IMG/VR virus record: IMGVR_UViG_2541047913_000006
DNA: 42,832 bases
Origin: a virus
Lineage: Duplodnaviria > Heunggongvirae > Uroviricota > Caudoviricetes
Reading direction: 5' to 3' (one strand)
Each line of letters starts with the position of its first letter. The stretch's first letter is position 1. Both the position numbers and the translations under genes were made by a program. Under the pieces are notes generated by a model. It was not told where the DNA came from. It did not search any database and saw nothing but the letters and a program-made list of their open reading frames with translations. Positions 1 through 42,832 of this stretch are shown one piece after another.

Positions 1-1236
1 CTACGATAACCGCGCATTCAACATGGCTATCTGTTCGTCGTTCATGTCATCAATCCACATACCGTAAATTTCATACACCATCTGCGCAGTTTCATGCCCC
101 ATTTGGCTGGCTATAAATGCCGGGTTCGCTCCTGCCGTCAACAGCCAGCAGGCAAAAGTATGCCGCGTATGGTACGGATTACGGCGGCGAATACCAGCAC
201 GTTTTACTGCTGCATTCCACCTTGCCCCCAAACTGCTTACCGAGTAATAAGGTTTTTGTTTTCCGTTACACACCCTGGGCATGAAAACAAAATGCAGTTT
301 TTGCTTTTCGGTTCTGCCGTACTCCCGATGATAAAAGGTGATTTCGCTTTTGCGATGATGCCCGGTCAGTTTGTATTGCTCCTTCAGTGCTTCAAGAGCA
401 GGCTGCAGTAGTGTTACTGTTCGGATCCCGGCATTTGTTTTTGGGGGACCGAACATATCAAGTATCGTCAGGTTTCTTCTGACATTCACTATTCCCTTTT
501 CGAGATCCACATCCTCCCACGCCAGAGCTGCCAGTTCCCCGTGACGAAGTCCTGAGTAAACGGCAAATTTCCACAAGTTCTGGCTCTGTCCTTTTTCACT
601 TTCCATTAATGCATTGAATTCTGTTTTAGATAACGGATCAGGCTTTATTCTGTTTCGCTGTAATTTTTTTACTCCTTCAAATGGTTTGGTTGATATAAAT
701 CCCGACTGATACGCAAAACGCAACAGCGAACAGAGCAGGGCGATATAGTTATCAACTGTGCGCACGGTTCTTCCTTTTTTGTTGGATCTTGGATTATCCA
801 GGTAAAGCGTTTCTCCATGCAGCAGTTCATTCCGGTAGTTTAAGATATCGCTATAACGAATATGTGATATCGGGGTACTTTCACAAATTATTATTCTGAG
901 TGTTTTTAATTGTGATTTCGTTTTCTTCATTGTGTTTGTTGTTAACTCTGTCTCTTTAATTTTTGTCCAGATATCACAAAGCTCTCCGAACGTTTTTATG
1001 ACTCTCGTTGTCACCATTTTTGCCCCAGTGCTGGACTGGGGAAAACGTCTTAAATACTCAAATTCACCGGAGTTTATTTCATGAACTATCAGCGATCTTA
1101 AATTTCCGGCCTTTTTAATATTACTGTTTGTAATCTCCCAGCCTTTTAATGTTTCCCGACATCGTTTTCCTCGAAACATGAACCAGATGCGAATGTATCT
1201 ACCTCTAATCTCGACACCTGTTGGTAATTTAGACAT
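1..1236 (-). CDS. intR: Phage integrase, tyrosine recombinase (Rac-type)
   Basis: 411-aa ORF from track; N-terminus MSKLPTGVEIRGRYIRIWF and C-terminal R..HTRH..Y catalytic region match Rac IntR as I recall it; ATG at 1234-1236, stop at 1-3. Confidence 0.9.
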   Translation of the reverse strand: MSKLPTGVEIRGRYIRIWFMFRGKRCRETLKGWEITNSNIKKAGNLRSLIVHEINSGEFEYLRRFPQSSTGAKMVTTRVIKTFGELCDIWTKIKETELTTNTMKKTKSQLKTLRIIICESTPISHIRYSDILNYRNELLHGETLYLDNPRSNKKGRTVRTVDNYIALLCSLLRFAYQSGFISTKPFEGVKKLQRNRIKPDPLSKTEFNALMESEKGQSQNLWKFAVYSGLRHGELAALAWEDVDLEKGIVNVRRNLTILDMFGPPKTNAGIRTVTLLQPALEALKEQYKLTGHHRKSEITFYHREYGRTEKQKLHFVFMPRVCNGKQKPYYSVSSLGARWNAAVKRAGIRRRNPYHTRHTFACWLLTAGANPAFIASQMGHETAQMVYEIYGMWIDDMNDEQIAMLNARLS

Positions 1237-1237
1237 A

Positions 1238-1453
1238 TCATGAGTCTTTGATAAACTGATTTATCTTTGGATAGTTGTACCAGATAATCCCTCGTTTGCT
1301 GTCTGGCTTACCTAAAGGAGATACTCGTTTGAAGTGGAAGCCCTCCACCCAACAGTTCTGGCGGTATGCTTCAATTTGTCTGGCCCCCAGACCAGTGCGA
1401 AGCATCAGGCCGTATTCAACCATCCACTCTTCATTAAAGATTACTTGTGCCAT
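1238..1453 (-). CDS. xisR: Excisionase (71 aa)
   Basis: Internal Met [15 protein letters not shown] of the 79-aa track ORF gives the 71-aa YdaQ/XisR-like protein directly upstream of int. Confidence 0.75.
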
Positions 1454-1531
1454 CGCATCACCTCTGGCAGGCGCCAATGTTAGACTGAAATTGACGCCCG
1501 ATGTTGATTATTAATAATCAGCTATGAAGTT

Positions 1532-1741
1532 TTAATTTGAATACAATGCAATTCTCGAGGACTGAAGTTTCTCGCAATTAAAATTTATCAGTTTTACTTT
1601 CTGCTCTCTGGAAACGCCTGCTTCTTTTTTACCTGAGAGCATTTTTTCGCATTCTGATTTCGTTAGTTTAGATTTTGAATATCTTGTCCAGTTAGTAGAA
1701 GTGCCACCTTCCTTTTCAATAGTGGCGGTAATTTTATACAT
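1532..1741 (-). CDS. ydaC: Small Rac prophage protein YdaC (69 aa)
   Basis: Internal start MYKITATIEKEGG within the 93-aa track ORF; synteny between xis and ralR; 8-nt overlap with ralR. Confidence 0.65.
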   Translation of the reverse strand: MYKITATIEKEGGTSTNWTRYSKSKLTKSECEKMLSGKKEAGVSREQKVKLINFNCEKLQSSRIALYSN

Positions 1742-1928
1742 GAACACCTCCATTATTATTTCCAGTGGTTCGTTTATTCCATCTTTCGAGTGCTTCTTTT
1801 TCACTTCCACCATAACCGGTTCGGGATTCGCATCCGTTACACTTCGCTCGGTAATATCCTGAAATGGCTTTCACCGTTACTGATGGACAACCACAAAATG
1901 GACATGGTTTAACATTGTCATATCTCAT
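1734..1928 (-). CDS. ralR: RalR restriction-alleviation protein / type I toxin (64 aa)
   Basis: MRYDNVKPCPFCGCPSVTVK...NGGVHV; Cys-rich small protein matching RalR as I recall it; start taken at internal Met of the 77-aa track ORF. Confidence 0.8.
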   Translation of the reverse strand: MRYDNVKPCPFCGCPSVTVKAISGYYRAKCNGCESRTGYGGSEKEALERWNKRTTGNNNGGVHV

Positions 1929-1984
1929 AATTTTTCTCATAAAAAATATTTCAAGTTGGCGGTGCATTACACCGCCAGGCTGAA

Positions 1985-2794
1985 TTATTCCTCTGAATTA
2001 TCGATTACACTGTATTCCCCGGTTAATACAGAGGAATCTGCAGGATCGATTGTCAGTGGTTCCTTTTCATCCATTGATACTGCACGCTGGATCTCAATTG
2101 ATACGGGCAGATATTTGAACAGGCGACGAATAGCCGTTTTCTTTGCCATTTCTTCCCAGTGAGTTACCCACGGCCCGTTATTACCAGCTTTACTCAGGCT
2201 GCGCACCAGCTCAATCTGTTTGCGCGTCATAACTTCAAACTGAGTACCTCCGTCTTTCAGTCTTGCGACAGCATAGACGTGGGTAACCGGGGCATCTTCG
2301 TTTTCTCCCGGGCGGTGTATTAACTTTTCATCAAGGCCAAATTCGAAGCTAAACTCGTCACCTTCACGGACAACACGGGCTGACAGGCTGGCGATTTGAC
2401 CAGAACGGCGAGCCAGATCAATCATGCCGCGATAGCCAATGATTAGCTGAACGTTCTTTTTACCGCTCTTTTCGTTTTTATTACCAAAAGGCAGTAAATA
2501 TGCATGACCGAGGGCGCTACCTGGCTCAAGTCCGAGCTGTGAACACTGTACGATCGCACTGACAAAACTCATAGTGTCACAGTTTCCTAACGCCGGAACT
2601 TTACGAATTTCTGTGGTGGCGATACGGATCATACGTTCAGCCGTCATATGGCGTGGAAGAGCTGCTGCCAGTTGCTCTTTCATTGATGGCTGGTTAATAA
2701 AACTAATCACGTCGCTATTTTTAACTGCTGCTGGTGCACGGTTTCCCTGAGTTTTTTGCAGATCGGCTTTTGCGATTGGTGGTTGCTTAGTCAT
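1985..2794 (-). CDS. recT: RecT single-strand annealing protein (269 aa)
   Basis: Translation from ATG 2792-2794 begins [21 protein letters not shown]; 8-nt overlap with recE stop, the classic recE/recT arrangement. Confidence 0.9.
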
Positions 2795-5387
2795 TTGCAT
2801 ATTCCTTAGCCCAGCGGGGCAGTGATAATGTCTTAATAGCTGGCCATTCATCGGTATTCAGGCAGTCAGACAGGGTTCGCAGATTGCGGTGATATTCCTG
2901 TTGACCTGCCAGTTTTGCTTCTTCGCCCATCATGAAAATTTCAACCGGATAACGTCCGCATTCAATAGTTGTGCTGGCAACCAGAAAAACGAAAGTTGGC
3001 TGCACTCCAAACTGTGCTTCATAACCGTCACTGTAGAATGCATCCTGAACGTGATAGCGGTAGTCGTAATAAGCGGTTTTGAATCGTTGAATATCCGCCG
3101 TAGTTTTCACGTCCATGATCCAGTGAAATTCAGGGATAATTTTGTCCGGACGGCACCGACACAAAATTCCTGTTTCAGGATCTTCCCAGTAAATTGATGA
3201 TTCAGCGTGTCCGGCGCTTTCAACAAGCCATTGCCCCAGCGGCAAAGCCATAACGCTTTGATACATGAGTTCAATTTTCCGGCCTTCTTCCGCAGTGATA
3301 ACCGTTTTTCCTGTGCTTGCGCATTCCATCAGAAACGCTTTCTCTTCTTCTTTTCCGGCGTTTGTACGGCGGTTAAATTCAGGTGCTACGATAAAGCGGT
3401 TACTGAATTCTTCCTGTTCAAGTACCCGGCAGTGGAAAGCAGTTCCTAAATCGAGCGTTTTTGTCTTTGTGGTGTCCACGGGGGCATTTTTACGCCACAA
3501 ATATAGTGCCGGAGTATCAGCAATGTCATCGAGCTGAGACTTACTGATACCGGGACCCGCGTGGTAATTCTCATTCGAAATTCCGTAATAAATACCTGGC
3601 TCTATGTCTTCTACGATTACGGGATCTGCGACTTCGCCAGTTTCATCACTGCAATCGCGATGCGGATCGCTGCCAGCATTCTCATTGTGCGGATGTTCAG
3701 CGCCTTCCATTTCCTCCGGATCATTTTCCTTAGCTTCAACCTGACTCTCTTCATCGAATGTTTCCTGGTATGTTGCGTCGCCCATCACCGCACCACAGTC
3801 AGGGCAGTTATCCCCGCCAGTCTGGCCGCAGGCATTGCAGGCTATTTCCGGTTCCTGTTGCACTACTGGCTCAGGTTGATTCATATCCGGGCTGGTTTTT
3901 TCCGTTTCTGGCTGGTTCTGGTACACACAATCGCGAGTCTGGATCCCCTTTACCCATTTCGGATCGTTCGGGTCGCTAATTCCGTCAACAAATTCACCAC
4001 GTGATGCAGCAAGCAATTTATCGGCATCGACAGGATTTTTTGATGGAATGTTTTTCCGGGCTTCATGGAGTTCTGCCCGCAGTTCCTGATATTTCGCATC
4101 AACAGAATTTACCTGTGACTGAGCATCCAGCGGCTGCGTGTCCTGATGATGTTCAGTTGCGTCCTGTTCCATTGTTTCAGCCTCTCCCTGTTCAACTGCC
4201 GTTGTTCCAGATGGTTGCGGTTTTTCTTCATCATCCTGTTTTCCTTCTTCTGTTACTCGCTGCGGCATCGGGGCAGAGGAGCGACCGCAGGCAATATCCA
4301 CGATTTCCGGATCAGGGTTGGCATGATCGGTTTCAGTCAGTACTTTGTTCAGATATTCAGTGACGTGCGCGGGGATGACCTCGATCCCAATTGGTGCTTC
4401 TTTTACGGACGCAACCACGATGGCGCGGGAATAATCCAGCCCGCCAGGCATGGTGATGAATTTGTCGCGGAAAACAGAAAAGGGCGGTTTATTTTCAGCG
4501 ATAATTTCCTCAATGCGTTTAGCGTGTGCCGGATGAAGGTTATAGATGTCCAGATCCATTGAACGGGCCAGTACGCCAGTGGCTACGTCGCGCGCCAGTG
4601 ACGTCAGATCGTGTACGAAACCTTCGCCGCGATCGGTGAGGTTTCCGCCGCCAGCATTAGCACCGGAAGCCGTGCGAGTGATGTGTGAAACACGATTACC
4701 CTTCATCCACTCTTTTGTCAGCAGTCCTCGATCGGTGTAGTCAGCGTTCAGGTATGCTTCGAAAAAAGCAGTTATCAGTCCCAGGTTTGAATTACCAGGA
4801 TTAGGGAAAACTTTGTCAGTGTCACGAACCAGTTTGTGGAGTTCGCGAATTTCCAGCGGGTCGAGCAGGCTGGTTTTGTGGGAAACAGCCAGGGCAGTAA
4901 CAGCCGGTAGTTCTTCAGCCCGAGCAATGTGTAATGCCTGGAGTCCGTCGCGTGAAACGTGCGTTACCGGTTTTTCGCTGCCGTGTTGAGCAAGCCAACG
5001 AATGGGCAGTTCCTGGCCAGAAATTGGGAGTAGCATATTCTCCTCAATCTCAGTCATGTCTTCGCCGTTGACGTTGGTATTGCCTTGATAGTGAGCGTTG
5101 TCTGGTGCTGCTCCCGGTTTTAGTTCCCATGTCATGGAGTCTTTGCTGAGTTGATAGCGTTCACTCCAGGTAAAATCGATCTCACCTTCAGCGGGCAGGT
5201 CATTAACGACAGGAAAATTCGTGGCAACAGCTTTAAAATAGCTGCTCAGTTTTTTACCTGACTTAACGATCAGGTAGTCCAGAGTGGCACAGGTCGATTC
5301 AAAATCGTTGCTTGCCCACAGGACGACGTCAGGTTCACCGGATGATTTTTTCGCTTTCCGTAACAGGAAGAGTGGTTTTGTGCTCAT
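2787..5387 (-). CDS. recE: Exodeoxyribonuclease VIII RecE (866 aa)
   Basis: 866-aa [23 protein letters not shown]...; acidic central region and C-terminal nuclease domain; length and sequence match RecE as I recall it. Confidence 0.9.
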
Positions 5388-5488
5388 TGTTTTTTAACCT
5401 CAACTCAGATTAAAATTCGTTTTGTTCAGTGAATGATCTTGCCGGATACACACTGTTCATAGCCTGCGTCATACGCAGGCTATTTCTT

Positions 5489-5764
5489 TCAGATTTCACC
5501 TTTTAATTTCATTGCAATTAGAGTTGCCAGAAATTCGGCTTTTTTTTCTGTGGGCAGATTCTTTCCGATATGCACCAGGCACATTTTTTTGACACCTTCA
5601 TCAAGTGTTTTTACGTTGCCTGATGGACCATCGATATCAACCACAGTGAATGGGGTTTCTTTATTTTCTGTTTTAATTACGTAGCCAATGCGCTTTCCTT
5701 CCAGATTCACCTCGTGAACAATGTCATCGGTAGTTACAACAGTGGCTTCATAATTGGTAATCAT
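5489..5764 (-). CDS. racC: RacC protein (91 aa)
   Basis: Internal start MITNYEATVVTTDD of the 107-aa track ORF; position immediately upstream of recE. Confidence 0.7.
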   Translation of the reverse strand: MITNYEATVVTTDDIVHEVNLEGKRIGYVIKTENKETPFTVVDIDGPSGNVKTLDEGVKKMCLVHIGKNLPTEKKAEFLATLIAMKLKGEI

Positions 5765-5838
5765 GTTTTTCTCCTTAATTAAGGTTGAGCGAATACCTGC
5801 CATTTCTGGCATAAATTCAGTTTCGAATAGTCAATTAA

Positions 5839-6009
5839 TTAAAGTTCATGTGCCATCTGGTCTTTTTCGGCACAAGCTTCACTGCAATATTTTCTCGGTT
5901 CGTCTTTTGATAAAATCCCGTGCATGAAGTGAAGCATTCTTTCAATAGCTTTGCTTTCTTCAACGTCTTTTTTGCAAAGGTGGTAAGCACATTTTATTTT
6001 CTTAGTCAT
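5839..6009 (-). CDS. ydaE: Small Cys-rich protein YdaE (56 aa)
   Basis: Not in ORF track (<60 aa); my translation of the reverse complement gives [56 protein letters not shown]; ATGA overlap with kilR stop. Confidence 0.65.
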   Translation of the reverse strand: MTKKIKCAYHLCKKDVEESKAIERMLHFMHGILSKDEPRKYCSEACAEKDQMAHEL

Positions 6010-6230
6010 CACCATGACTCCGCCTTTACAGGTAAACCATCACGACCGAGGAAGACTTTAATCATGCGGTCAGTAATGCATGTTTTTGTGGTCAGGTTAC
6101 GAATATATAGTTTTCGCTTTTTAATATTGTTTGCCGAGGCAATATATGTCCGGCCTTCATGAAGAACATAATCGCCAGGAGTCACACACTGACGTGGTAT
6201 TTCATCAGTTCCGAAGTGATGTGCAATCAT
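6009..6230 (-). CDS. kilR: KilR, FtsZ-inhibiting killing protein (73 aa)
   Basis: [38 protein letters not shown]... matches KilR as I recall it; start at ATG 6228-6230. Confidence 0.85.
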
Positions 6231-6671
6231 AATTATCTCCATTTTTACAAATGAACTTTGTTGATGCGGTGCCTGGTGCCTCCAGGTGACTGCAACCAGT
6301 TAACAATTACAGTCGGCTTTCCCACCCAAACCAATAAGGACTAACATGACTTTTAACTGTGCCACGTGCGCTTAGCCGCATTCACCGCATCACAAAATTC
6401 ACTTTAAAAAGGGCGGACATCAGCCGAACTTCAAGAAAAAAACTGATGCCGCCAGGACTACACACAGCAATGTCGTTATTTACAACCGGAGGCGCACTCC
6501 CACCATTTAAATTTAACAGACAAGACCGACTCTTTATGGATATCGGAAATGCGCCTTCGTGTTGTGCCCGGTTTTATTTCACCACCTCCGGGCTTCGGTG
6601 GTCTCGGCTATACCCCTACAGCGAGAGCTTGTGTTAACATTTCAATACCCTTACAGTTGAGAGTTATTGAT

Positions 6672-7160
6672 ATGTTGGATGTATTTACTCCATTGTTGAA
6701 ATTTTTTGCTAACGAGCCACTCGAAAGACTTATGTATACGATTATCATTTTTGGTCTCACTCTCTGGCTGATACCGAAAGAGTTTACTGTCGCATTCAAT
6801 GCTTATACTGAAATACCTTGGCTCTTTCAGATTATCGTTTTTGCCTTTTCTTTCGTGGTCGCCATTTCCTTCTCAAGATTGCGAGCGCATATTCAAAAGC
6901 ATTATTCATTACTACCAGAGCAACGAGTATTGCTTCGTTTATCTGAGAAAGAAATCGCTGTATTTAAAGATTTCCTTAAAACAGGAAATCTTATTATCAC
7001 TTCTCCTTGCCGTAACCCGGTTATGAAAAAATTAGAACGGAAGGGCATCATTCAACATCAGAGTGATAGCGCAAACTGTTCTTATTATCTCGTCACCGAA
7101 AAATACTCCCATTTTATGAAGTTATTCTGGAACAGCAGGAGTAGACGTTTTAATCGTTAG
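6672..7160 (+). CDS. sieB: Superinfection exclusion protein SieB-like (162 aa, membrane)
   Basis: Internal start MLDVFTPLLKFFANEPLERLMYTIIIFGLTLWLIP; hydrophobic N-terminal helices; position between kil and repressor as in lambda/Rac. Confidence 0.7.
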   Translation: MLDVFTPLLKFFANEPLERLMYTIIIFGLTLWLIPKEFTVAFNAYTEIPWLFQIIVFAFSFVVAISFSRLRAHIQKHYSLLPEQRVLLRLSEKEIAVFKDFLKTGNLIITSPCRNPVMKKLERKGIIQHQSDSANCSYYLVTEKYSHFMKLFWNSRSRRFNR

Positions 7161-7312
7161 CTTACTGTGTGCTTCTCCAACCATCGGCGCGCACCAGTTT
7201 CGGTTTTAAATGTTTTGCTTTTGGTATACGTCATGGCAGTGAACGTTCCATCCTGGTTGGGGAACACGCCGCACACCAGGGATTCGTTGTTGCCGAGGTC
7301 GATTTTTTGCAT
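7157..7312 (-). CDS. ydaF: Small protein YdaF (51 aa)
   Basis: My translation: MQKIDLGNNESLVCGVFPNQDGTFTAMTYTKSKTFKTETGARRWLEKHTVS; synteny with K-12 Rac. Confidence 0.5.
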   Translation of the reverse strand: MQKIDLGNNESLVCGVFPNQDGTFTAMTYTKSKTFKTETGARRWLEKHTVS

Positions 7313-7322
7313 TTTGCGAATC

Positions 7323-7457
7323 TCACATCTTGTTGCTACGTATAGCGACTTCTGCCTGCCAGAGATCCCAGTCGTTGCTGCGTAAAGCCTGCACAGCCTG
7401 GTTGTAAGTGATACCGCAACAATCCATCAAATACTGAACTACTTCGTAATGCACCAT
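7323..7457 (-). CDS. ydaG: Small protein YdaG (44 aa)
   Basis: My translation: MVHYEVVQYLMDCCGITYNQAVQALRSNDWDLWQAEVAIRSNKM; adjacent to ydaF on same strand. Confidence 0.5.
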   Translation of the reverse strand: MVHYEVVQYLMDCCGITYNQAVQALRSNDWDLWQAEVAIRSNKM

Positions 7458-7744
7458 CTTATCTATCCCCTTAACGCCGGGTGGCGGAACTAACTGCTGC
7501 ACTGCAAAATTTGAATCCCGCCGTCATGTTCATACGCCTCGGGCTGGCTACTTAACCCCTGACCACTGCCTGGTAACTCGAAGTATTGCCCGGCGTTCTG
7601 TGGGGCGGGGTGGGTTGGTAGGTATATAATGTACTTTGTGTTCATCATTGTAAAGTACTTTAAGTACATTTTATGTATAAAAAAATGAGACGGGATAAAG
7701 TGAAGCACAAACCCGGAGGGGGACGCTACCGGATTTATGCTGGT

Positions 7745-8164
7745 TTAAGAGGCTTTTTGTTTTTTCTTTCGTGCTAACTCTTCGTAAATTGCATTGTACT
7801 TCTGTTTTTTCTCCTCAAGAGTTTTTAAAAGTTCATCTGTCTCACTGTCAGGGAGCTCGTCCAGAAGGTCAATGATGATTTTTTGTCTTGGATTTAACTC
7901 CTGATAGAAACGTATCTGTCCACTTTCTTCTGTATCCTCTCCCAAAAGATAGGTTGGTGTTGTTCCAATGAGTGTTGCTAATTCCCTTAATTTCTCTCGG
8001 CGAGGAATTGTTTCACCATTAAACCATTTGCTAACCGCTTTTGGTGTTAATTTCATTCGACGGGCAATTTCTGCCTGCCTTCCATGTTGTTCATAACCAG
8101 CGTTTTCACAGGCTAGCGCAAGCCTACTGGCGAACTCTTTACGCGCTTTATCTTCATGAACCAT
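7745..8164 (-). CDS. racR: Prophage repressor, HTH XRE family (RacR-like)
   Basis: 139-aa ORF with N-terminal HTH (GRQAEIARRMKLTPKAVSKWFNGE); divergent from ydaS/ydaT, typical immunity-region layout. Confidence 0.8.
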   Translation of the reverse strand: MVHEDKARKEFASRLALACENAGYEQHGRQAEIARRMKLTPKAVSKWFNGETIPRREKLRELATLIGTTPTYLLGEDTEESGQIRFYQELNPRQKIIIDLLDELPDSETDELLKTLEEKKQKYNAIYEELARKKKQKAS

Positions 8165-8243
8165 AAGTTCAATGATATTCGCTCTTGAATGTACTGTCAG
8201 TTCTGTTATAGCATGTACTCAAAGTTCACATTGTGAGGGTGAT
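8165..8243. promoter_or_regulatory. Divergent promoter/operator region between racR and ydaS
   Basis: 79-bp intergenic region with symmetric motif arrangement: AAGTTCA (8165-8171), ATGTACT (8189-8195), ATGTACT (8213-8219), AAGTTCA (8222-8228). Confidence 0.5.
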
Positions 8244-8498
8244 ATGAACCAGAAAACACTTGAAGATGTAATCAAAACTGTTCGCGTTTCTGTTGTGGCC
8301 GACGTTTGTGGTGTCAGCCAAAGAGCAATCTACAAATGGATGGATAACGGAAAATTGCCTCGCACAGAATATACCGGCGAAACAAATTACGCTGAAAAAA
8401 TCGCTCATGCATCAAACGGATTATTTTCTGCCGATGCAATTTTAACTATTGGCAGAAATAAAACTACTACGAAAAAGCTGATGGGAGTTGATTCATGA
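8244..8498 (+). CDS. ydaS: Cro-like HTH protein YdaS
   Basis: HTH (VSQRAIYKWMDNGKLP); start placed at ATG 8244 (RBS GAGGGTGA upstream) rather than track start 8172, which would sit 7 bp from the racR start. Confidence 0.65.
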   Translation: MNQKTLEDVIKTVRVSVVADVCGVSQRAIYKWMDNGKLPRTEYTGETNYAEKIAHASNGLFSADAILTIGRNKTTTKKLMGVDS

Positions 8499-8917
8499 AA
8501 ATCAAGCATGAGCACATCGAATCAGTGTTGTTAGCCCTGGCAGCCGAAAAAGGGCAGGCGTGGGTCGCTAACGCAATTACTGAAGAATATCTGCGCCAGG
8601 GGGGCGGCGAATTGCCCCTGGTACCAGGCAAGGACTGGAACAATCAGCAGAATATCTATCATCGTTGGTTGAAAGGTGAAACGAATGCGCAAAGGGAAAA
8701 AATTCAGAAACTGATCCCTGCGGTTCTGGCAATTCTTCCTCGCGAGCTGCGTCACCGACTCTGCATCTTCGATACCCTGGAACGCCGTGCATTACTGGCG
8801 GCACAGGATGCACTGAGTACGGCAATTGATGCGCATGATGATGCAGTCCAGGCCGTTTACCGTAAAGCACATTTCAGCGGCGGCGGTTCTCCTAGCGATT
8901 CTGTCGTAGTGCATTGA
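8495..8917 (+). CDS. ydaT: YdaT, CII-like regulator/toxin of Rac (140 aa)
   Basis: MKIKHEHIESVLLALAAEKGQAWV...; ATGA overlap with ydaS stop, indicating translational coupling. Confidence 0.8.
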   Translation: MKIKHEHIESVLLALAAEKGQAWVANAITEEYLRQGGGELPLVPGKDWNNQQNIYHRWLKGETNAQREKIQKLIPAVLAILPRELRHRLCIFDTLERRALLAAQDALSTAIDAHDDAVQAVYRKAHFSGGGSPSDSVVVH

Positions 8918-8994
8918 TTGAAATTAATCGTACCGAACTGTTTTGTTCGGTATCAGTTAAATGTAACGCTGCGAGCGTTACAAGGTGAAAACAA

Positions 8995-9783
8995 ATGGCT
9001 TCAAACTGGATAAAGCTCGAAGTTATTACGCCGGATAAGCCGGAAATATTCAGGCTTGCTGAGATTCTGAATATTGATCCAGATGCCGCATTAGGGAAAG
9101 TCATTCGCTTCTGGGCATGGGCGGATCAACAAATGATAGACGGTAACGCAGAGTGTAACGCTCGCGGCGTTACAAAAAGTGCAATAGATCGCATCACTTT
9201 TATGGCTGGTTTTGCTGATGCGTTAATTCAGGTTGGATGGCTGGTCGAAACTAATGGTGTGTTGTCGCTTCCTAACTTTGAGCGCCATAACGGGAAAAGC
9301 TCTAAAAAACGGGCGGTTACAAACGAGAGAGTAACAAAAATACGAGAACTGAAACGAAAAGGTAACGCTGCCAGCGTTACAAAAACGGATCAAAAAGCGT
9401 TACCAGAGGAAGAGAAAGAGGAAGATATAAATACTTATCTCCCCCTAAATCCCCCTCGCCAAAAACGAGCGTCTAAAAAATTCGAACCGGAGGCTATCGA
9501 GCTGCCTGACTGGTTGCCGGAAACACTCTGGCATGAGTGGGTTCAGTTCAGGCAGGCATTGCGAAAACCGATTCGAACGGAGCAGGGCGCTAACGGGGCG
9601 ATACGGGAGCTGGAAAAATTCCGCCAGCAGGGTTTTTCACCTGAGCAGGTGATTCGACACAGCATCGCCAACGAATACCAGGGCTTGTTCGCGCCGAAAG
9701 GTGTTCGACCTGAGACGTTACTCCGACAGGTTAACACCGTCTCGTTACCGGATAGTGCGATCCCGCCAGGCTTCAGGGGGTAA
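8995..9783 (+). CDS. ydaU: Phage replication initiation protein (YdaU-like, O-like)
   Basis: 262-aa ORF directly upstream of the DnaC-like loader; contains and is preceded by 19-bp palindromic repeats (candidate origin/iterons). Confidence 0.65.
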   Translation: MASNWIKLEVITPDKPEIFRLAEILNIDPDAALGKVIRFWAWADQQMIDGNAECNARGVTKSAIDRITFMAGFADALIQVGWLVETNGVLSLPNFERHNGKSSKKRAVTNERVTKIRELKRKGNAASVTKTDQKALPEEEKEEDINTYLPLNPPRQKRASKKFEPEAIELPDWLPETLWHEWVQFRQALRKPIRTEQGANGAIRELEKFRQQGFSPEQVIRHSIANEYQGLFAPKGVRPETLLRQVNTVSLPDSAIPPGFRG

Positions 9784-9789
9784 CTGACC

Positions 9790-10536
9790 ATGAAAAATAT
9801 TGCGACAGGCGACGTTCTTGAACGTATCCGCAGACTGGCCCCGTCACATGTAACCGCGCCATTCAAGACGGTAGCGGAGTGGCGCGAGTGGCAACTTTCC
9901 GAAGGCCAGAAACGTTGTGAGGAGATCAACCGTCAGAATCGTCAGTTGCGGGTGGAAAAAATTCTGAATCGCTCTGGCATCCAGCCATTGCACCGCAAAT
10001 GCTCGTTTTCGAATTACCAGGTGCAGAACGAAGGGCAGCGATACGCGTTGAGTCAGGCGAAATCCATCGCTGATGAACTGATGACCGGGTGTACAAATTT
10101 TGCGTTCAGCGGAAAACCTGGTACCGGGAAGAACCACTTAGCGGCAGCTATCGGGAATCGCCTGCTGAAAGACGGTCAGACAGTGATTGTGGTTACCGTG
10201 GCTGATGTTATGAGTGCCCTGCACGCCAGCTATGACGACGGGCAGTCAGGCGAAAAATTTTTGCGGGAACTGTGCGAAGTGGATCTGCTGGTTCTTGATG
10301 AAATTGGCATTCAGCGCGAGACGAAAAACGAGCAGGTGGTACTGCACCAGATTGTTGATCGCCGGACAGCGTCGATGCGCAGCGTGGGGATGCTGACAAA
10401 CCTGAACTATGAGGCCATGAAAACATTGCTTGGCGAGCGGATTATGGATCGCATGACCATGAACGGCGGGCGATGGGTGAATTTCAACTGGGAGAGCTGG
10501 CGTCCGAATGTCGTCCAGCCAGGAATTGCGAAGTAA
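9790..10536 (+). CDS. ydaV: DnaC/IstB-like helicase loader ATPase (YdaV)
   Basis: Walker [16 protein letters not shown] and Walker [10 protein letters not shown]; 248 aa. Confidence 0.85.
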
Positions 10537-10558
10537 TTTTTACCGGGAGAAAAATTTA

Positions 10559-11308: not shown

Positions 11309-11561
11309 ATACTCCTGATTATATGAGTCATCCTGCTGCAGTTGTGACCAATATGATCGGTTGTGCAGAGTTCTTCAGATAGGGGTAATGAAAACTGCGG
11401 TGATTTGTATTCGCTGCAGTTAATATAAACTCGTCGAATTTTTTCATGAAATGTGATCTTAGTCATATTTATATCACGTCTATTTATCAGGTTCTGATGA
11501 AATCATCAGGTGTTAAGATACTATTTGTGCTGTCACCTCAATGGGTTAAAAAGGAATCTGG

Positions 11562-12164: not shown

Positions 12165-12179
12165 GGTAATGACTCCAAC

Positions 12180-30952: not shown

Positions 30953-31082
30953 TGGTGTCTTTAATTAAATCGATGATGCTCCTTGAGAAAAGCATTGCGT
31001 GGCCTCGTAATCGCTATATCTACTATTATGTCGCCTGAAACCCACTTCGCGGTGGGTTTTTTGTTGTCAGGAGTTTTAATAA

Positions 31083-34000: not shown

Positions 34001-34316
34001 CGGTATTTATGATTCCCCGCAATTTTTTGCTTTTGCAAAAGGGGCTGGTGTTTTTGGTGAGGCTGGACCGGAAGCCATTATGCCATTAACACGAACTTCC
34101 GATGGTTCTCTTGGTGTCAGAGCTATTAATAGTAAAAGTGGTAATGGAGGCGGAGATATTACCTATGCCCCTGTATACCAAATCACTATTCAAAATGACG
34201 GCCAGAATGGAGAGATTGGCCCTCAGGCAATAAAAGCACTTATGGGGATGGTTGATCAGCGGGTGCAGGGCAATCTGTTAAATATGCGACGTGATGGGGG
34301 AATGTTAAGTGGCTAA
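31083..34316 (+). CDS. Tail tape measure protein
   Basis: 1077 aa; long coiled-coil-rich N-terminal half; position. Confidence 0.9.
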
Positions 34317-34647
34317 TACGGAAGAATTTCACTGGTTACCAGAGGATGGAATGAAAACAGAAAATAAACCATCGATAAAAACTGTAAGATTTGGCGATGG
34401 TTATGAGCAACGAAGTCCAAATGGACTTAATCATTCTCTGCGCGTTTTCACCTGTGATTTCAAAGTTGAGGCGAATGAACGTGATTCATTTGAAAAATTT
34501 TTAGCCCGGCATGAAGGCTATAAATCTTTTTTTTGGCGCCCGCCGGGTATTAACAGAAAAATCAGAGTGGTGTGTCGAACGTGGTCAGCGACAGAACATA
34601 TCACCTATACCGATTTTTCGTGTCAGTTTGACGAAGTGGTGATCTGA
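34309..34647 (+). CDS. Minor tail protein, lambda gpM-like
   Basis: 112 aa; [16 protein letters not shown]...FFWRPPG...FDEVVI resembles lambda M. Confidence 0.85.
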
Positions 34648-35345
34648 TGCAGGACATACAACAGGAAACGCTGAATGAATGCATTCGTGCGGAGCAGTCG
34701 GCCAGCGTGGTGCTCTGGGAAATCGACCTGACCGAGGTAGGCGGGGATCGCTACTTTTTCTGTAATGAGCAGAACGAAAAAGGTGAGTCTGTCACCTGGC
34801 AGAGTCGGCAGTATCAGGCCTATCCCATTCAGGGGAGTGGATTTGAGATGAACGGCAAGGGCAGTGCTGCCCGTCCGACACTGACGGTCTCTAACCTGCA
34901 CGGCATGATCACCGGGATGGCGGAAGATCTGCAGAGTCTGGTCGGCGGAACGGTGGTCCGGCGTAAGGTTTACGCCCGCTTTCTGGATGCGGTGAACTTC
35001 GTCAACGGAAACAGCGAAGCCGATCCGGAGCAGGAGGTGATCAGCCGCTGGCGCATCGAGCAGTGCAGCGAACTGAGCGCGGTCAGTGCCTCTTTTGTAC
35101 TGTCCACGCCGACTGAAACGGATGGCGCTGTTTTTCCGGGACGTATCATGCTGGCCAACACCTGCACCTGGACCTATCGCGGCGATGAGTGCGGTTATAG
35201 CGGTCCGGCGGTCGCGGATGAATATGACCAGCCGACGTCCGATATCACGAAGGATAAATGCAGCAAATGCCTGAGTGGCTGTAAGTTTCGCAATAATGTC
35301 GGCAACTTTGGCAGCTTCCTTTCCATTAACAAACTTTCGCAGTAA
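34647..35345 (+). CDS. Minor tail protein, lambda gpL-like
   Basis: 232 aa; C-terminal Cys cluster (CTWTYRGDECGYSG...CSKCLSGCKFRNN) as in lambda L. Confidence 0.85.
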   Translation: MQDIQQETLNECIRAEQSASVVLWEIDLTEVGGDRYFFCNEQNEKGESVTWQSRQYQAYPIQGSGFEMNGKGSAARPTLTVSNLHGMITGMAEDLQSLVGGTVVRRKVYARFLDAVNFVNGNSEADPEQEVISRWRIEQCSELSAVSASFVLSTPTETDGAVFPGRIMLANTCTWTYRGDECGYSGPAVADEYDQPTSDITKDKCSKCLSGCKFRNNVGNFGSFLSINKLSQ

Positions 35346-35350
35346 ATCCC

Positions 35351-36094
35351 ATGACAGAGACAGAATCAGCGATTCTGGCGCACGCCCGGCGATGTGCGCC
35401 AGCGGAGTCGTGCGGCTTCGTGGTGAGAACGCCGGAGGAGGAAAGATATTTTCCCTGCGTGAATATCTCCGGTGAGCCGGAGGAGTATTTCCGGATGTCG
35501 CCGGAGGACTGGCTGCAGGCCAAAATGCAGGGAGAGATTGTGGCGCTGGTCCACAGCCACCCCGGTGGTCTGCCCTGGCTGAGTGAGGCCGACCGGCGGC
35601 TGCAGGTACAGAGTGATTTGCCGTGGTGGCTGGTCTGCCGGGGGGCGATTCATAAATTCCGCTGTGTGCCGCATCTCACCGGGCGGCGCTTTGAGCACGG
35701 GGTAACGGACTGTTACACGCTGTTCCGGGACGCTTACCATCTGGCGGGAATTGAGATGCCGGATTTTCATCGCGGGGATGACTGGTGGCGTAACGGTCAG
35801 AATCTCTATCTGGATAATCTGGAGGCCACAGGGCTGTATCAGGTGCCGTTGTCAGCGGCGCAGCCGGGCGATGTGCTGCTGTGCTGTTTTGGTTCATCGG
35901 TGCCGAATCATGCCGCCATTTACTGTGGTGACAGCGAGCTGCTGCACCATATTCCTGAACAACTGAGCAAACGAGAGAGGTACACCGACAAATGGCAGCG
36001 ACGCACACACTCCCTCTGGCGTCACCGGGCATGGCACGCATCTGCCTTTACGGGGATTTACAACGATTTGGCCGCCGCATCGACCTTCGAGTGA
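35351..36094 (+). CDS. Tail assembly protein, lambda gpK-like (JAB/MPN + NlpC/P60)
   Basis: 247 aa; HSHP motif (IVALVHSHPGG) and NlpC/P60-type Cys (VTDCYTLFRD). Confidence 0.85.
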   Translation: MTETESAILAHARRCAPAESCGFVVRTPEEERYFPCVNISGEPEEYFRMSPEDWLQAKMQGEIVALVHSHPGGLPWLSEADRRLQVQSDLPWWLVCRGAIHKFRCVPHLTGRRFEHGVTDCYTLFRDAYHLAGIEMPDFHRGDDWWRNGQNLYLDNLEATGLYQVPLSAAQPGDVLLCCFGSSVPNHAAIYCGDSELLHHIPEQLSKRERYTDKWQRRTHSLWRHRAWHASAFTGIYNDLAAASTFE

Positions 36095-36633
36095 AAACGG
36101 GGTCCGAAGCCATCCGGGCGCTGGCCATGCAGATCCCGGCATTTCGTCAGAAACTGAGCGACGGCTGGTACCAGGTACGCATTGCCGGGCGTGATGCAGG
36201 TGAAACCGAATTGTCTGCCCGTCTTAATGAGCCGCTGGAAAATGGTGCCGTGATCCATATCGTGCCGCGTCTGGCAGGAGCCAAAAGTGGCGGTGTGTTT
36301 CAGGCTGTGCTGGGGGCGGCTGTTATGGCGGTTGCTATATGGATGCCGGGGGTAGGAATTATGGCGAGTAATCTGCTGTTTTCTCTCGGTGCCAGTATGA
36401 CGCTTGGCGGTGTTGCACAGATGCTGGCACCGAAAGCCAGAACCCCCCGCACACAGACAACGGATAACGGTAAGCAGAACACCTATTTCTCCTCACTGGA
36501 TAACATGGTTGCCCAGGGCAATGTTCTGCCTGTTCTGTACGGGGAAATGCGCGTGGGGTCTCGCGTGGTTTCTCAGGAGATCAGCACGGCAGACGAAGGG
36601 GATGGTGGTCAGGTTGTGGTAATTGGTCGCTGA
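35992..36633 (+). CDS. Tail assembly protein, lambda gpI-like
   Basis: 213 aa; overlaps K 3' end; C-terminus ...NVLPVLYGEMRVGSRVVSQEISTADEGDGGQVVVIGR as in lambda I. Confidence 0.8.
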   Translation: MAATHTLPLASPGMARICLYGDLQRFGRRIDLRVKTGSEAIRALAMQIPAFRQKLSDGWYQVRIAGRDAGETELSARLNEPLENGAVIHIVPRLAGAKSGGVFQAVLGAAVMAVAIWMPGVGIMASNLLFSLGASMTLGGVAQMLAPKARTPRTQTTDNGKQNTYFSSLDNMVAQGNVLPVLYGEMRVGSRVVSQEISTADEGDGGQVVVIGR

Positions 36634-36689
36634 TGAAAAACGTTTATGTGAAACCGCCTCCGGGCGGTTTTGTCGTTTATGGAGCGTGA

Positions 36690-40091
<3,402 letters not shown>

Positions 40092-40109
40092 ATTTTATAA
40101 CCCAGAACG

Positions 40110-40133
40110 GGCGTCAGAAATGACGCCTTTTTT
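40110..40133 (+). terminator. Intrinsic terminator after J
   Basis: GGCGTCA-GAAA-TGACGCC hairpin followed by TTTTTT. Confidence 0.6.
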
Positions 40134-40157
40134 ATTGCAGAAAAGCGAGAGGTAATT

Positions 40158-40757
40158 ATGCGTAAAGTTTGTGCAGCCATTTTGTCCGCAGCCATTTGTC
40201 TGGCCGTATTCGGTGCGCCTGCATGGGCATCTGAACATCAGTCCACGCTGAGCGCGGGGTATCTTCATGCCTTGACGAACGTTCCCGGCAGCGATGATCT
40301 TAACGGGATTAACGTGAAATACCGTTATGAGTTTACGGACACACTGGGGCTGGTGACGTCATTCAGCTATGCAGGAGACAAGAATCGCCAGCTGACCCGT
40401 TACAGCGATACCCGCTGGCATGAAGATTCCGTGCGTAACCGCTGGTTCAGCGTGATGGCGGGGCCGTCTGTGCGCGTGAATGAATTGTTCAGCGCGTATG
40501 CGATGGCGGGTGTGTCTTACAGCCGTGTGTCGACTTTCTCCGGGGATTATCTCCGCGTAATTGACAACAAGGGGAAAACGCACGACGTGCTGACCGGAAG
40601 TGATGACGGTCGCCACAGCAACACGTCTCTGGCGTGGGGAGCTGGCGTGCAGTTTAACCCGACCGAATCCGTGGCCATTGATATTGCTTATGAAGGCTCC
40701 GGCAGTGGTGACTGGCGCACTGACGGTTTCATCGTGGGTGTCGGTTATAAATTCTGA
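40158..40757 (+). CDS. lomR: Lom outer membrane protein (Ail/Lom family), intact
   Basis: 199 aa with signal peptide; beta-barrel OMP ending ...GFIVGVGYKF; position after J as in lambda. Confidence 0.85.
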   Translation: MRKVCAAILSAAICLAVFGAPAWASEHQSTLSAGYLHALTNVPGSDDLNGINVKYRYEFTDTLGLVTSFSYAGDKNRQLTRYSDTRWHEDSVRNRWFSVMAGPSVRVNELFSAYAMAGVSYSRVSTFSGDYLRVIDNKGKTHDVLTGSDDGRHSNTSLAWGAGVQFNPTESVAIDIAYEGSGSGDWRTDGFIVGVGYKF

Positions 40758-40783
40758 TTAGCCAGGTAACACAGTGTTATGAC

Positions 40784-40810
40784 AGCCCGCCGGTTCAGAC
40801 GGGCTTTTTT
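40784..40810 (+). terminator. Intrinsic terminator after lom
   Basis: AGCCCG...CGGGCT hairpin followed by TTTTTT. Confidence 0.6.
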
Positions 40811-40821
40811 GTGGGGTGAAT

Positions 40822-42832
40822 ATGGCAGTAAAGATTTCAGGTGTACTGAAAGACGGCACAGGAAAACCGGTACAGAACTGCACAATCCAGCTGAAAGCAA
40901 AACGTAACAGTACCACTGTGGTGGTGAACACGCTGGCCTCAGAAAATCCGGATGAAGCCGGGCGTTACAGCATGGACGTTGAGTACGGTCAGTACAGCGT
41001 TATTCTGTTGGTGGAAGGATTCCCGCCGTCACATGCCGGGACCATCACCGTGTATGAAGATTCTCAACCCGGTACGCTGAATGATTTTCTCGGTGCCATG
41101 ACGGAGGATGATGCCCGTCCGGAGGCACTGCGCCGTTTTGAACTGATGGTGGAAGAGGTGGCGCGTAACGCGTCCGCGGTGGCACAGAACACGGCAGCCG
41201 CGAAGAAGTCAGCCAGTGATGCCAGCACATCAGCCCGTGAGGCGGCAACCCATGCGGCTGATGCTGCGGACTCAGCACGCGCAGCCAGCACGTCAGCCGG
41301 ACAGGCCGCGTCGTCGGCTCAGTCAGCGTCTTCCAGCGCAGGAACGGCATCAACAAAGGCCACTGAAGCCTCAAAAAGTGCTGCCGCTGCAGAGTCCTCA
41401 AAAAGCGCGGCGGCCACCAGTGCCGGTGCGGCGAAAACGTCAGAAACGAATGCGGCAGCGTCAGAACAATCAGCCGCCACTTCTGCATCCACCGCGACCA
41501 CGAAAGCGTCAGAAGCAGCCACTTCAGCACGGGATGCGTCGGCTTCAAAAGAGGCGGCAAAATCATCAGAAACGAGCGCAGCCTCGAGCGCCAGTAGTGC
41601 AGCCTCCTCGGCAACAGCGGCAGGAAATTCCGCGAAGGCGGCAAAAACGTCCGAGACGAACGCCAGGTCTTCTGAGACGGCAGCGGGACAGAGCGCCTCA
41701 GCTGCGGCAGGCTCAAAAACAGCGGCTGCGTCATCTGCCAGCGCCGCGTCAACAAGTGCCGGGCAGGCCTCAGCCAGTGCCACCGCTGCCGGAAAGTCGG
41801 CAGAAAGTGCCGCATCGTCTGCTTCAACAGCCACAACGAAGGCTGGCGAAGCCACTAAACAGGCCAGCGCAGCAGCGAGTTCTGCTTCCGCAGCGAAGAC
41901 ATCCGAAACGAACGCGAAAGCCTCGGAAACCAGTGCAGAATCCTCAAAAATGGCAGCTGCATCGTCCGCCAGTTCGGCGGCGTCATCGGCATCATCTGCG
42001 TCTGCTTCAAAAGATGAGGCGAGCAGACAGGCATCAGCAGCGAAAGGCAGCGCCACGACGGCATCCACGAAGGCGACAGAGGCAGCTGGTAGTGCGACGG
42101 CGGCAGCTCAGAGCAAAAGTACGGCGGAATCCGCGGCAACGCGCGCCGAGACAGCAGCAAAACGGGCAGAGGATATTGCATCCGCCGTGGCGCTTGAGGA
42201 TGCAAGTACGACGAAAAAGGGGATAGTACAGCTCAGCAGTGCGACCAACAGTACGTCTGAAACGCTGGCGGCAACGCCAAAGTCAGTAAAATCAGCCTAT
42301 GACAATGCAGAGAAACGTCTGCAGAAAGACCAGAACGGCGCTGATATACCCGATAAGGGACGCTTCCTGAACAACATTAACGCGGTCAGTAAAACAGACT
42401 TTGCTGATAAGCGTGGTATGCGTTATGTGCGGGTTAACGCTCCTGCAGGTGCAACATCTGGAAAATATTACCCTGTTGTTGTTATGCGTTCTGCTGGCTC
42501 AGTAAGCGAACTGGCATCAAGGGTCATTATCACCACGGCAACGCGAACCGCAGGCGATCCGATGAATAACTGCGAGTTTAACGGATTTGTTATGCCTGGT
42601 GGCTGGACTGACAGGGGGCGTTATGCTTATGGAATGTTCTGGCAATATCAAAACAATGAACGAGCCATCCACTCAATAATGATGAGTAATAAGGGCGATG
42701 ATTTGCGCTCTGTGTTCTATGTTGATGGCGCTGCTTTCCCTGTTTTTGCGTTTATCGAAGATGGCCTGTCAATATCCGCACCTGGTGCTGATCTCGTTGT
42801 TAATGATACGACCTATAAGTTTGGGGCAACAA
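40822..42832 (+). CDS. stfR: Side tail fibre protein Stf (3' end beyond window)
   Basis: Frame open from ATG 40822 to the window end by my translation (MAVKISGVLKDGTGKPVQNCTIQLKAK...); long Ala/Ser-rich repeat region (...KTSETNA... units); not in track because it has no stop within the window. Confidence 0.8.
   Translation, partial: MAVKISGVLKDGTGKPVQNCTIQLKAKRNSTTVVVNTLASENPDEAGRYSMDVEYGQYSVILLVEGFPPSHAGTITVYEDSQPGTLNDFLGAMTEDDARPEALRRFELMVEEVARNASAVAQNTAAAKKSASDASTSAREAATHAADAADSARAASTSAGQAASSAQSASSSAGTASTKATEASKSAAAAESSKSAAATSAGAAKTSETNAAASEQSAATSASTATTKASEAATSARDASASKEAAKSSETSAASSASSAASSATAAGNSAKAAKTSETNARSSETAAGQSASAAAGSKTAAASSASAASTSAGQASASATAAGKSAESAASSASTATTKAGEATKQASAAASSASAAKTSETNAKASETSAESSKMAAASSASSAASSASSASASKDEASRQASAAKGSATTASTKATEAAGSATAAAQSKSTAESAATRAETAAKRAEDIASAVALEDASTTKKGIVQLSSATNSTSETLAATPKSVKSAYDNAEKRLQKDQNGADIPDKGRFLNNINAVSKTDFADKRGMRYVRVNAPAGATSGKYYPVVVMRSAGSVSELASRVIITTATRTAGDPMNNCEFNGFVMPGGWTDRGRYAYGMFWQYQNNERAIHSIMMSNKGDDLRSVFYVDGAAFPVFAFIEDGLSISAPGADLVVNDTTYKFGAT

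Follow-up and report, generated by a model that had tools for sequence, protein, structure and literature searches.

A probable near-full-length Rac-lineage prophage with two insertion-sequence lesions, and its relation to the Rac remnant of K-12

Gene content and alignment with K-12 Rac

The window examined here is a stretch of 42,832 nucleotides (nt) from the tailed-virus record IMGVR_UViG_2541047913_000006; its first base belongs to the stop codon that ends the integrase gene intR, and its last base lies inside the tail-fibre gene stfR. We conclude, with a probability of about 90%, that it is a nearly full-length, ttcA-integrating lambdoid prophage of the Rac lineage of Escherichia coli, that the Rac prophage of strain K-12 is a deletion derivative, and that the window copy is itself defective. 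The element is real, ordinary, and of an already known kind, with nothing new in kind. The GC content is between 0.39 and 0.48 across most of the window and 0.56 from ~34.6 kb onward. As the comparison reference, the interval 1408000-1438000 of the K-12 MG1655 chromosome (NC_000913.3) and its annotation were aligned to the window by blastn; K-12 Rac itself occupies positions 1411899-1434958.

The left end of the window carries the early arm in Rac order, rcbA-ralR/RalA-recT-recE-racC-ydaE-kilR-sieB, and trkG follows as cargo after the lysis genes. The integrase gene intR (1-1236, minus strand; 411 codons, as in K-12) and the excisionase gene xisR (1238-1453, minus strand), named after the annotations of K-12 and of strain 64, are 99.8% identical in nucleotide sequence to K-12 Rac. 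Beyond them are rcbA, ralR, recT, recE, racC, ydaE, kilR, ydaF, and a ydaG-like gene (1532-7502, minus strand), with sieB on the plus strand of the same early-left region (6672-7160). These genes belong to a block (window 1-7620) that aligns with K-12 from intR to ydaG at 99.79% nt identity. The antitoxin small RNA RalA (1557-1735, plus strand; RF02694, 224 bits) is the sole match in the window in an Rfam scan. K-12 Rac has the same ralR/RalA, recET, kilR, and sieB genes.

Further blocks follow in the order of the K-12 prophage. Window 8489-8915 aligns with ydaT (92.5% nt identity), 9410-11008 with 3′ ydaU, ydaV, and 5′ ydaW (95.2%), 15005-15286 with the start of Rz (98.9%), 16542-18696 with the rest of Rz, trkG, and 5′ ynaK (99.3%), 30260-32017 with ydaY to ynaA (99.6%), 40360-40573 with the first part of K-12 lom (97.2%), and 40568-42832 with the end of lom and stfR (97.3%). 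The shared gene order is therefore intR-xisR-rcbA-ralR-recT-recE-racC-ydaE-kilR-sieB-ydaF-ydaG ... ydaT-ydaU-ydaV-ydaW on the left and Rz-trkG-ynaK ... ydaY-tape measure ... lom-stfR on the right. A preliminary description of the window, made from its letters, had given the order from intR to ydaW, trkG, and the lom-stf end as that of K-12 Rac, and the collinear blocks, at 92.5 to 99.8% identity, bear this out: the two loci are syntenic, and the additional genes that it listed are not present at full length in K-12.

Between these blocks, three segments of the window are missing from K-12. Deletion 1 (window 11009-15004) covers the end of ydaW, the nin/Q region, the holin and endolysin genes, and the start of Rz. 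Deletion 2 (window 18697-30259, 11.56 kb) covers the rest of ynaK, a glycosyltransferase gene of the Pfam family TAGT, and the terminase, portal, head, connector, and tail tube genes. Deletion 3 (window 32018-40359, 8.34 kb) takes in the greater part of the tape measure gene, then M, L, K, I, and J, and ends a third of the way into lom. The latter two sum to 19.9 kb absent from K-12, in agreement with the ~20 kb of packaging, head, and tail genes that the preliminary description had counted beyond the K-12 complement. At every K-12 junction, microhomology extends over 2 bp (TA, AA, and CA).

The genes shortened at these junctions in K-12 are ydaW, rzpR, ynaK, ynaA, and lomR. K-12 ydaW is cut at window position 11008 and fused into Rz. 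K-12 ynaK encodes 87 amino acids (aa), of which about the first 85 codons are kept up to the junction at window 18696, compared with 264 aa in the window. K-12 ynaA is the N-terminal ~310 aa (5′ 935 bp) of a 1077-aa tape measure protein, joined to lom at a junction corresponding to window 32017. The K-12 junctions cut genes that are whole in the window, and this polarity makes K-12 Rac the deletion derivative, rather than the window the product of insertion. K-12 lom contains an IS5 element (IS, insertion sequence) that the window lom lacks; K-12 Rac then acquired it in addition. Our alignment provides base-accurate coordinates for the three deletions that turned a Rac-type phage of ~47-50 kb into the 23-kb K-12 remnant, and it accounts for the K-12 orphan genes ydaW, rzpR, ynaK, ydaY, ynaA, and lomR as junction fragments. 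The passage of a 2019 review that deals with Rac, citing Lawrence et al. 2001, describes K-12 Rac as incomplete and an intact version as present in another strain (PMC6379469).

The immunity region departs from K-12. In a blastn comparison, K-12 racR/ydaS find no counterpart in window 7621-8488, where a different pair stands: an HTH_3 repressor gene (7745-8164, minus strand; Pfam HTH_3) and a cro-like helix-turn-helix gene (8244-8498, plus strand; Pfam HTH_17), both falling in PHROG transcriptional repressor families. The preliminary description, sound as to gene order, had passed over this replacement. The segment 7621-8498 is identical in strains 64 and PCP06022. This makes the window a different immunity type within the Rac lineage and does not exclude it from that lineage. 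On its right are ydaT (8495-8917), a replication initiator gene (8995-9783; Pfam and PHROG) whose 5′ part, at 8916-9409, is unmatched to K-12 ydaU, the DnaC/IstB-like gene ydaV (9790-10536; Pfam and PHROG), and a full-length ydaW (10559-11308; DUF1627, Pfam and PHROG), which is cut in K-12; all four are on the plus strand. An unmatched repressor/cro-like pair and an unmatched 5′ initiator segment, next to ydaT and ydaV flanks at 92-95% identity, suggest that an immunity/replication cassette was swapped within the Rac lineage.

Insertion sequences, lysis genes, and the missing Q-like region

The preliminary description of a more complete relative of K-12 Rac holds in that the alignment confirms the extra genes, yet this fuller copy has two IS lesions. 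One of them had been overlooked: a 768-bp IS1 (12165-12932, minus strand), together with an adjoining deletion of 4.5 kb. The element was delimited by reading its terminal repeats directly, contains Pfam DDE_Tnp_IS1, and is 99% identical to IS1 copies genome-wide. Its ends, likewise read directly, have no flanking target duplication, which fits a deletion adjacent to the element. The IS1 stands in place of 4.5 kb that relatives keep (strain 64, locus L002 16166-20666); in K-12, the larger deletion 1 hides this site. The DNA lost there comprises the part of an ATPase gene that encodes the C-terminal two-thirds of the protein, a hok fragment, the genes for DUF1367 (NinB-like in PHROG) and DUF1364 (HNH in PHROG), and the gene for a DUF1133 Q-like antiterminator with 917 bp downstream. 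For the DUF1133 protein, the PHROG match is phrog_753, "anti-termination protein Q-like" (E 4e-79), and there is a faint match to Phage_antitermQ; its counterpart is annotated as q in Rac-SA53 (KU052037). The best promoter-like site with a terminator-like hairpin behind it, both identified as consensus matches only, occurs solely within the IS1-deleted segment. A tRNA scan found none in the window and none in the Q-to-lysis region of strain 64. The IS1 junction of the window was found in 0 of the 5426 complete E. coli genomes searched, and the best coverage of the first 21 kb of the window among complete genomes, 94%, is owing to an unrelated IS match.

In this copy, IS1 and the adjacent 4.5-kb deletion have taken away the Q-like antiterminator gene and the DNA just downstream. 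The late promoter would have lain in the DNA lost beside IS1. With its late operon deprived of an activator, the prophage should not make plaque-forming particles unaided, although every structural open reading frame (ORF) is open. Because the IS1-linked loss includes the Q-like antiterminator region, the window copy is probably defective.

The ATPase gene ended by IS1 belongs to the Sll1717 family of nSTAND-like P-loop proteins. A 5′ fragment of ~200 of 689 codons remains (11562-12164, plus strand), with weak Pfam matches to nSTAND3 and ORC-CDC6. The full gene lies in strain 64 between ydaW and the nin/Q region (L002 15562-17631, 689 aa), and the window matches it up to 12165. The full-length protein has only weak PADLOC matches to candidate systems (PDC-M36A and PDC-M28C), and it could be a prophage-borne defence gene. 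PADLOC assigned no defence system to sieB, the TolA-like genes described below, the TAGT gene, or the truncated ATPase gene.

The second lesion interrupts the lysis cassette. The phage-21 S family holin gene (14276-14491; Pfam Phage_holin_2_1, E 4.5e-35) and the endolysin gene (14491-14988; Pfam Phage_lysozyme, E 5.7e-45), whose product has a Gly/Ala-rich, signal-anchor-like N terminus, are intact and on the plus strand. They resemble the phage 21 pair of a pinholin and a signal-anchor-release endolysin. Both fall inside K-12 deletion 1 and are hence missing from K-12 Rac. The Rz (i-spanin) gene (14985-16710, plus strand), with Rz1 (o-spanin, start 15205) embedded in it, is split at 15286/16545 by a 1258-bp IS3 (15287-16544, minus strand). 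The IS3 has TGATC...GATCA ends, Pfam domains rve, HTH_21, and HTH_Tnp_1, and two minus-strand genes, orfA (16180-16488) and orfB (15317-16183); it is flanked by a 3-bp target duplication, GTC, at 15284-15286 and 16545-16547. The break comes after about codon 100 of the 154 in Rz and about codon 27 of the 61 in Rz1, and the Pfam Phage_lysis match on Rz covers only profile positions 1-74 of 126. Of the lysis genes that the preliminary description had listed as intact, holin and endolysin are so, and Rz and Rz1 are not.

The IS3 in Rz is missing from K-12, which has an intact rzoR, and from strain 64; it is common to a few sequenced strains, including 2017.01.04CC. An independent insertion in the latter, as PGAP coordinates had indicated, was considered and dropped, for the blast alignment runs straight through the element in one 8.4-kb block; we treat it as the same insertion as in the window. 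Strain 2017.01.04CC combines this shared IS3 with a different IS1-linked deletion, from recE to a point upstream of DUF1367 (L012 1259-3504 and 8055-9780). Because that deletion is a different one, IS1-mediated erosion of Rac-type prophages is recurrent, and fuller Rac copies decay independently through IS1 and IS3.

The lysis cassette is a mosaic: a phage-21 S family holin and an endolysin, neither of which has a tblastn match in lambda, are followed by Rz/Rz1 that are 95-97% identical to lambda. Relative to lambda, Rz is 97% identical in nucleotide sequence before the IS3 and 82% after it, and 95% identical in amino acid sequence. Two tandem genes for small proteins with a TolA C-terminal domain (13050-13478, Pfam TolA E 2e-23; 13629-14024, E 1e-14; both plus strand) and lipobox-like N termini lie between the deleted Q region and the holin gene, a usual position for cargo; the encoded proteins might interfere with Tol-dependent colicins or filamentous phages. 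The K+ transporter gene trkG (16848-18305, plus strand; 99.3% nt identity to K-12) is cargo between the lysis and packaging genes.

Relatives and alternative readings

Apart from the two IS sites, strains 64 (NZ_CP142590.1) and PCP06022 are 99.7-100% identical to the window across its whole length. In both, intR adjoins ttcA, as it does in K-12, and the genomes that match the window at this level place the element between ttcA, to its left, and uspF-ompN, to its right. Full-length Rac-type relatives differ from the window in keeping the Sll1717-family ATPase, DUF1367, DUF1364, and DUF1133 genes, most of them with uninterrupted Rz/Rz1. Of 5426 complete E. coli genomes, 680 carry at least 80% of the late half of the window and 95 carry at least 80% of the early half. 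The right end of the element differs from that of K-12, because relatives carry a GGDEF-domain gene and sitABCD in place of pinR-ynaE-ynaM; in strain 64 these lie between tfaR and uspF (L003 32834-38071).

Among deposited phage records, vB_EcoS-666R9, 673R7, and 613R10 and Salmonella phage SPF_0923 (ON032529) match the head module at 98.3-98.4% and the early half at up to 98.8%; over the tail region, the deposited prophage records are at 96-97% and SPF_0923 at 96.4%. The vB_EcoS records are PHASTER-predicted prophages and not isolated virions. Rac-SA53 resembles the window in its ttcA-side intR, its recET-kilR early arm, ydaT-U-V-W, and a DUF1367-DUF1364-q trio upstream of the lysis genes. It differs in that only 6% of the window head module is matched; its late region is unrelated, with baseplate-type genes and LT-II and pertussis-like toxin genes. 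By this comparison, the Rac early arm travels with different late modules, which confirms modular exchange.

Could the window instead be an unrelated lambdoid prophage from elsewhere in the chromosome that only shares a few Rac modules? The window has no chromosomal flank from which its location could be read directly, and its immunity region is unlike that of K-12 Rac. Against this stand a 7.6-kb stretch with intR and xisR that is 99.8% identical, the 99.3-99.6% blocks over trkG-ynaK and ydaY-ynaA in the same order as in K-12, and the position of the element between ttcA and uspF-ompN in genomes at 99.7-100% identity, so that we regard such an origin as next to inconceivable. A second possibility is that the K-12 arrangement is the original one and that the window prophage later took over its head and tail DNA from other phages through recombination, which would make the differences insertions and not K-12 deletions. 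Lambdoid phages do swap modules freely; the window is itself mosaic, with an immunity region unlike K-12 and a tail tip ~93% identical to lambda, and Rac-SA53 joins a Rac-type early arm to a wholly different late region. Nevertheless, the three K-12 junctions all cut genes that are complete in the window (ynaK, tape measure, ydaW, Rz, and lom), the full length of ynaK is confirmed by 41% end-to-end identity to homologues from an archaeal virus and a Lactobacillus phage, and the DNA on both sides of each junction is 98.9-99.6% identical. We consider this order of events very improbable, and prefer K-12 Rac as the deletion derivative.

That the window might not be one more defective prophage but a temperate phage still intact and inducible, the functional form ancestral to Rac, deserves slightly more credit but is still improbable. 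All packaging, head, connector, and tail ORFs are open at the lengths found in strain 64; integrase, excisionase, repressor, replication, holin, and endolysin genes are all there; and close relatives are called "intact" by PHASTER. On the other side, IS1 has replaced the 4.5 kb that held the only Q-like antiterminator gene and its downstream DNA, IS3 splits Rz and Rz1, and the "phage" records of relatives are software-predicted prophages rather than isolated virions. Several points nonetheless weigh against our conclusion of a defective Rac copy from which K-12 differs by deletion. The loss of late transcription is deduced from gene content and consensus promoter scans, and the Q function of DUF1133 is based on its position and on a PHROG name. 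Under some conditions, lambda spanin mutants still bring about lysis, and the IS3 lesion would thus not be lethal by itself. The immunity/replication segment is only 92-95% identical or unmatched, so the window and K-12 are not simple deletion variants of one sequence, and recombination has contributed too. Finally, attL and ttcA, and attR as well, lie outside the window, so its own integration site is not visible. If the window copy is defective as we propose, reviving a Rac-type phage from it would need the Q region and the spanins restored.

Other Rac-type prophages have lost DNA at the same locus. Many E. coli proteins consist of a TAGT N terminus fused to tail fibre, J, or tube C termini (P0029, P0038, and P0046). 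In one genome (GCA_001614825.1; L010 8001-9674), a single large deletion has fused the TAGT gene to the end of a tail-fibre gene. These fusions are independent large deletions in Rac-type prophages, analogous to but distinct from the K-12 deletions.

Late modules and the ynaK-TAGT pair

Functions in the packaging, head, and connector region were assigned from Pfam families and PHROG names, and all genes of the late region named below are on the plus strand. A small ORF (20098/20140-20349; 83 codons), which matches the middle of the TerS family phrog_309, precedes terS (20353-21447; Pfam Terminase_2), terL (21428-22729; Terminase_6N/6C), the portal gene (22732-24138; DUF4055), a minor head protein gene of the Mu F/SPP1 gp7 type (24122-25234; Phage_Mu_F), the scaffold gene (25339-26103; DUF6651), and the major capsid gene (26202-27341; a weak P22_CoatProtein match). 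TerS is unusually long, at 364 aa; the annotation of the corresponding Rac-SA53 gene describes it as two genes fused. The late ORFs are all open, with lengths as in strain 64, and the single 1-nt indel lies between I and J. The family to which TerL belongs, and the presence of a Mu F-like protein, point to headful packaging and not to cos packaging.

The preliminary description had judged the head and packaging module not to be lambda-like, and this stands. By tblastn (E < 1e-3), the packaging and head proteins have no match in lambda (NC_001416), and the Pfam families of the lambda counterparts (GpA_ATPase/GpA_nuclease, Phage_portal_2, and Phage_cap_E) differ from those of the window in all three proteins tested, TerL, portal, and capsid. 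Where the window has the Mu F-like protein and scaffold, lambda has C/Nu3 and D, which stood outside the Pfam comparison. The two also differ in the early arm, which has exo/bet/gam in lambda and recET in the window. An SPP1-like head was considered as well. SPP1 (NC_004166) shares the order terS-terL-portal-minor head protein-scaffold-capsid and, in gp7, the Phage_Mu_F domain; it differs in having SPP1_portal, Terminase_3/3C, and a Gp13-like capsid in place of DUF4055, Terminase_6N/6C, and a P22_CoatProtein-like capsid. No window protein matches SPP1 by tblastn, and the label was rejected as holding only for the layout and the Mu F domain. Outside E. coli prophages, the closest relatives of the portal protein occur in Pseudomonas and Xanthomonas siphophages, at 31-41% identity.

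Connector and proximal tail genes follow: a small ORF (27384-27560), a head-tail adaptor (27564-27959), a head closure protein (27959-28342), a tail completion protein (28343-28723), a tail terminator (28720-29112; Phage_tail_terminator_5), and the tail tube (29139-30101; Phage_tube_2). The connector and proximal tail proteins match PHROGs 493, 161, 169, 179, and 290. Next is ydaY (30252-30611; phrog_313), a tail assembly chaperone gene analogous to lambda G, which is overlapped by a T-like open frame (30575-30952) in the -1 frame relative to ydaY. In a frame analysis, reading on in the -1 frame from the slippery heptamer A AAA AAG (30599-30605) reaches the T-like ORF, and a -1 frameshift at this site would join the pair.

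The distal part comprises the tape measure gene (31083-34316; 1077 aa, TMP_2 and Tape_meas_lam_C), an M-like minor tail gene (34309-34647; Phage_min_tail), L (34647-35345; Phage_tail_L, 93.5% aa identity to lambda), K (35351-36094; 97%), I (36031-36633; Lambda_tail_I, 80%), J (36693-40091; Pfam J domains, 90%), an intact lom (40158-40757; Ail_Lom, 97.3% nt identity to K-12, in which lomR is truncated and contains IS5), and the first 670 codons of stfR (40822-42832; phage_tail_N, 97.3% nt identity to K-12), which is cut by the end of the window. Amino acid identity to lambda is 46.5% for Lom, 93% for the Stf N terminus, 42% for M, and 28% for the tape measure protein H. By blastn, window 34625-39649, from the end of M through most of J, is 93% identical to lambda 13407-18461, and window 40630-41730 (end of lom and start of stf) is 87% identical, with a further 79% stretch at 42035-42290. 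Lambda-like DNA in the window is confined to Rz, to 34625-39649, and to the stretches where lom ends and stf begins.

The preliminary description had called the tail clearly lambda-like. This is correct from 34625 on, where nucleotide identity is 87-93% across L, K, I, most of J, the final part of lom, and the beginning of stf, and it does not hold upstream, where H and M reach only 28% and 42% and the adaptor, terminator, tube, and G/T analogues lack lambda similarity. For the adaptor, terminator, tube, and chaperone proteins, tblastn against lambda gave no match (E < 1e-3), and their Pfam families are others: Phage_tail_terminator_5 and Phage_tube_2, with no Phage_TAC_2, versus Phage_tail_U, Phage_TTP_12, and Phage_TAC_2 in lambda. 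We therefore place a mosaic joint at 34625, with a proximal tail that is non-lambda or only remotely lambda-like and a distal tail of lambda type. The joint coincides with a step in GC content, from 0.448 upstream to 0.564 in the L-J block. What the window has in common with lambda is the lambdoid layout, L/K/I/J and the Stf N terminus (80-97% aa identity), Rz (95% aa identity), H and M as remote homologues, and an analogous G/T-type pair with a -1 slippery site. Inside J, an antisense ORF of 510 codons (37785-39317, minus strand) lies in a lambda-like block of 57-61% GC, coding DNA rich enough in GC that the frame probably stays open by chance.

Directly upstream of terS, the window carries the pair formed by a full-length ynaK (18443-19237, plus strand; 264 aa), with a ParB N-terminal domain (Pfam ParB_N) and a conserved C-terminal domain, and the gene for a TAGT/GREB1-related, GT-A-like glycosyltransferase (19230-20162, plus strand; Pfam TAGT, E 6e-35). 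The two proteins match phrog_620 and phrog_842, and for the YnaK N terminus there is a further match, to the N-terminal domain found in ParB-methyltransferase fusions. The TAGT protein, which has at least 7983 homologues, contains an invariant DDD motif. In a model of medium quality (pLDDT 68), its fold matches are all GT-A glycosyltransferases, at low TM-scores of 0.3-0.4; matches this low would back the fold class only. In Lactobacillus phage phi jlb1, the adjacent pair immediately precedes terS, and in halovirus HHTV-2, where it is likewise adjacent, it lies ~3 kb upstream of terL; in both viruses, the two proteins are 41-44% identical to those of the window. The glycosyltransferase, considered without its neighbours, has matches of 44-46% identity in phages of Nocardia and Vibrio and of ~27% in Porphyromonas phages.

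Thymine dioxygenases have been shown to be activated by ParB homologues of phages, and such enzymes are found together with glycosyltransferases, ParB proteins, and terminases (PMC13229309; bioRxiv 10.1101/2023.12.21.572611). The closest published system is that of the ParB-dependent T-dioxygenases (PMC13229309), and it differs from the present pair in that no dioxygenase was found among the scanned window ORFs. Pfam detected no Tet_JBP or ThyS-type domain in these, the scan having left aside small early-left ORFs, which were named from the K-12 annotation. Our literature search on TAGT with ParB, and on ynaK, found nothing on function. A speculative reading, which we offer as doubtful, is that ynaK-TAGT is a self-contained, packaging-linked modification module in which the ParB fold activates or targets the glycosyltransferase without a TET/JBP dioxygenase, the substrate being either other than 5-hydroxymethylcytosine or 5-hydroxymethyluracil (5hmC/5hmU) in DNA, or a protein. 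If this were true, K-12 ynaK would be the stump of a ParB-TAGT modification module.

PGAP marks ynaK in full-length copies as a pseudogene with "missing C-terminus" (strain 64, L002 24926-25183). Because the ORF stays open for 264 codons and phage homologues align with it over its whole length, this flag is probably an artefact of naming the gene after the truncated K-12 protein, and ynaK in full-length copies is thus probably wrongly annotated as a pseudogene.

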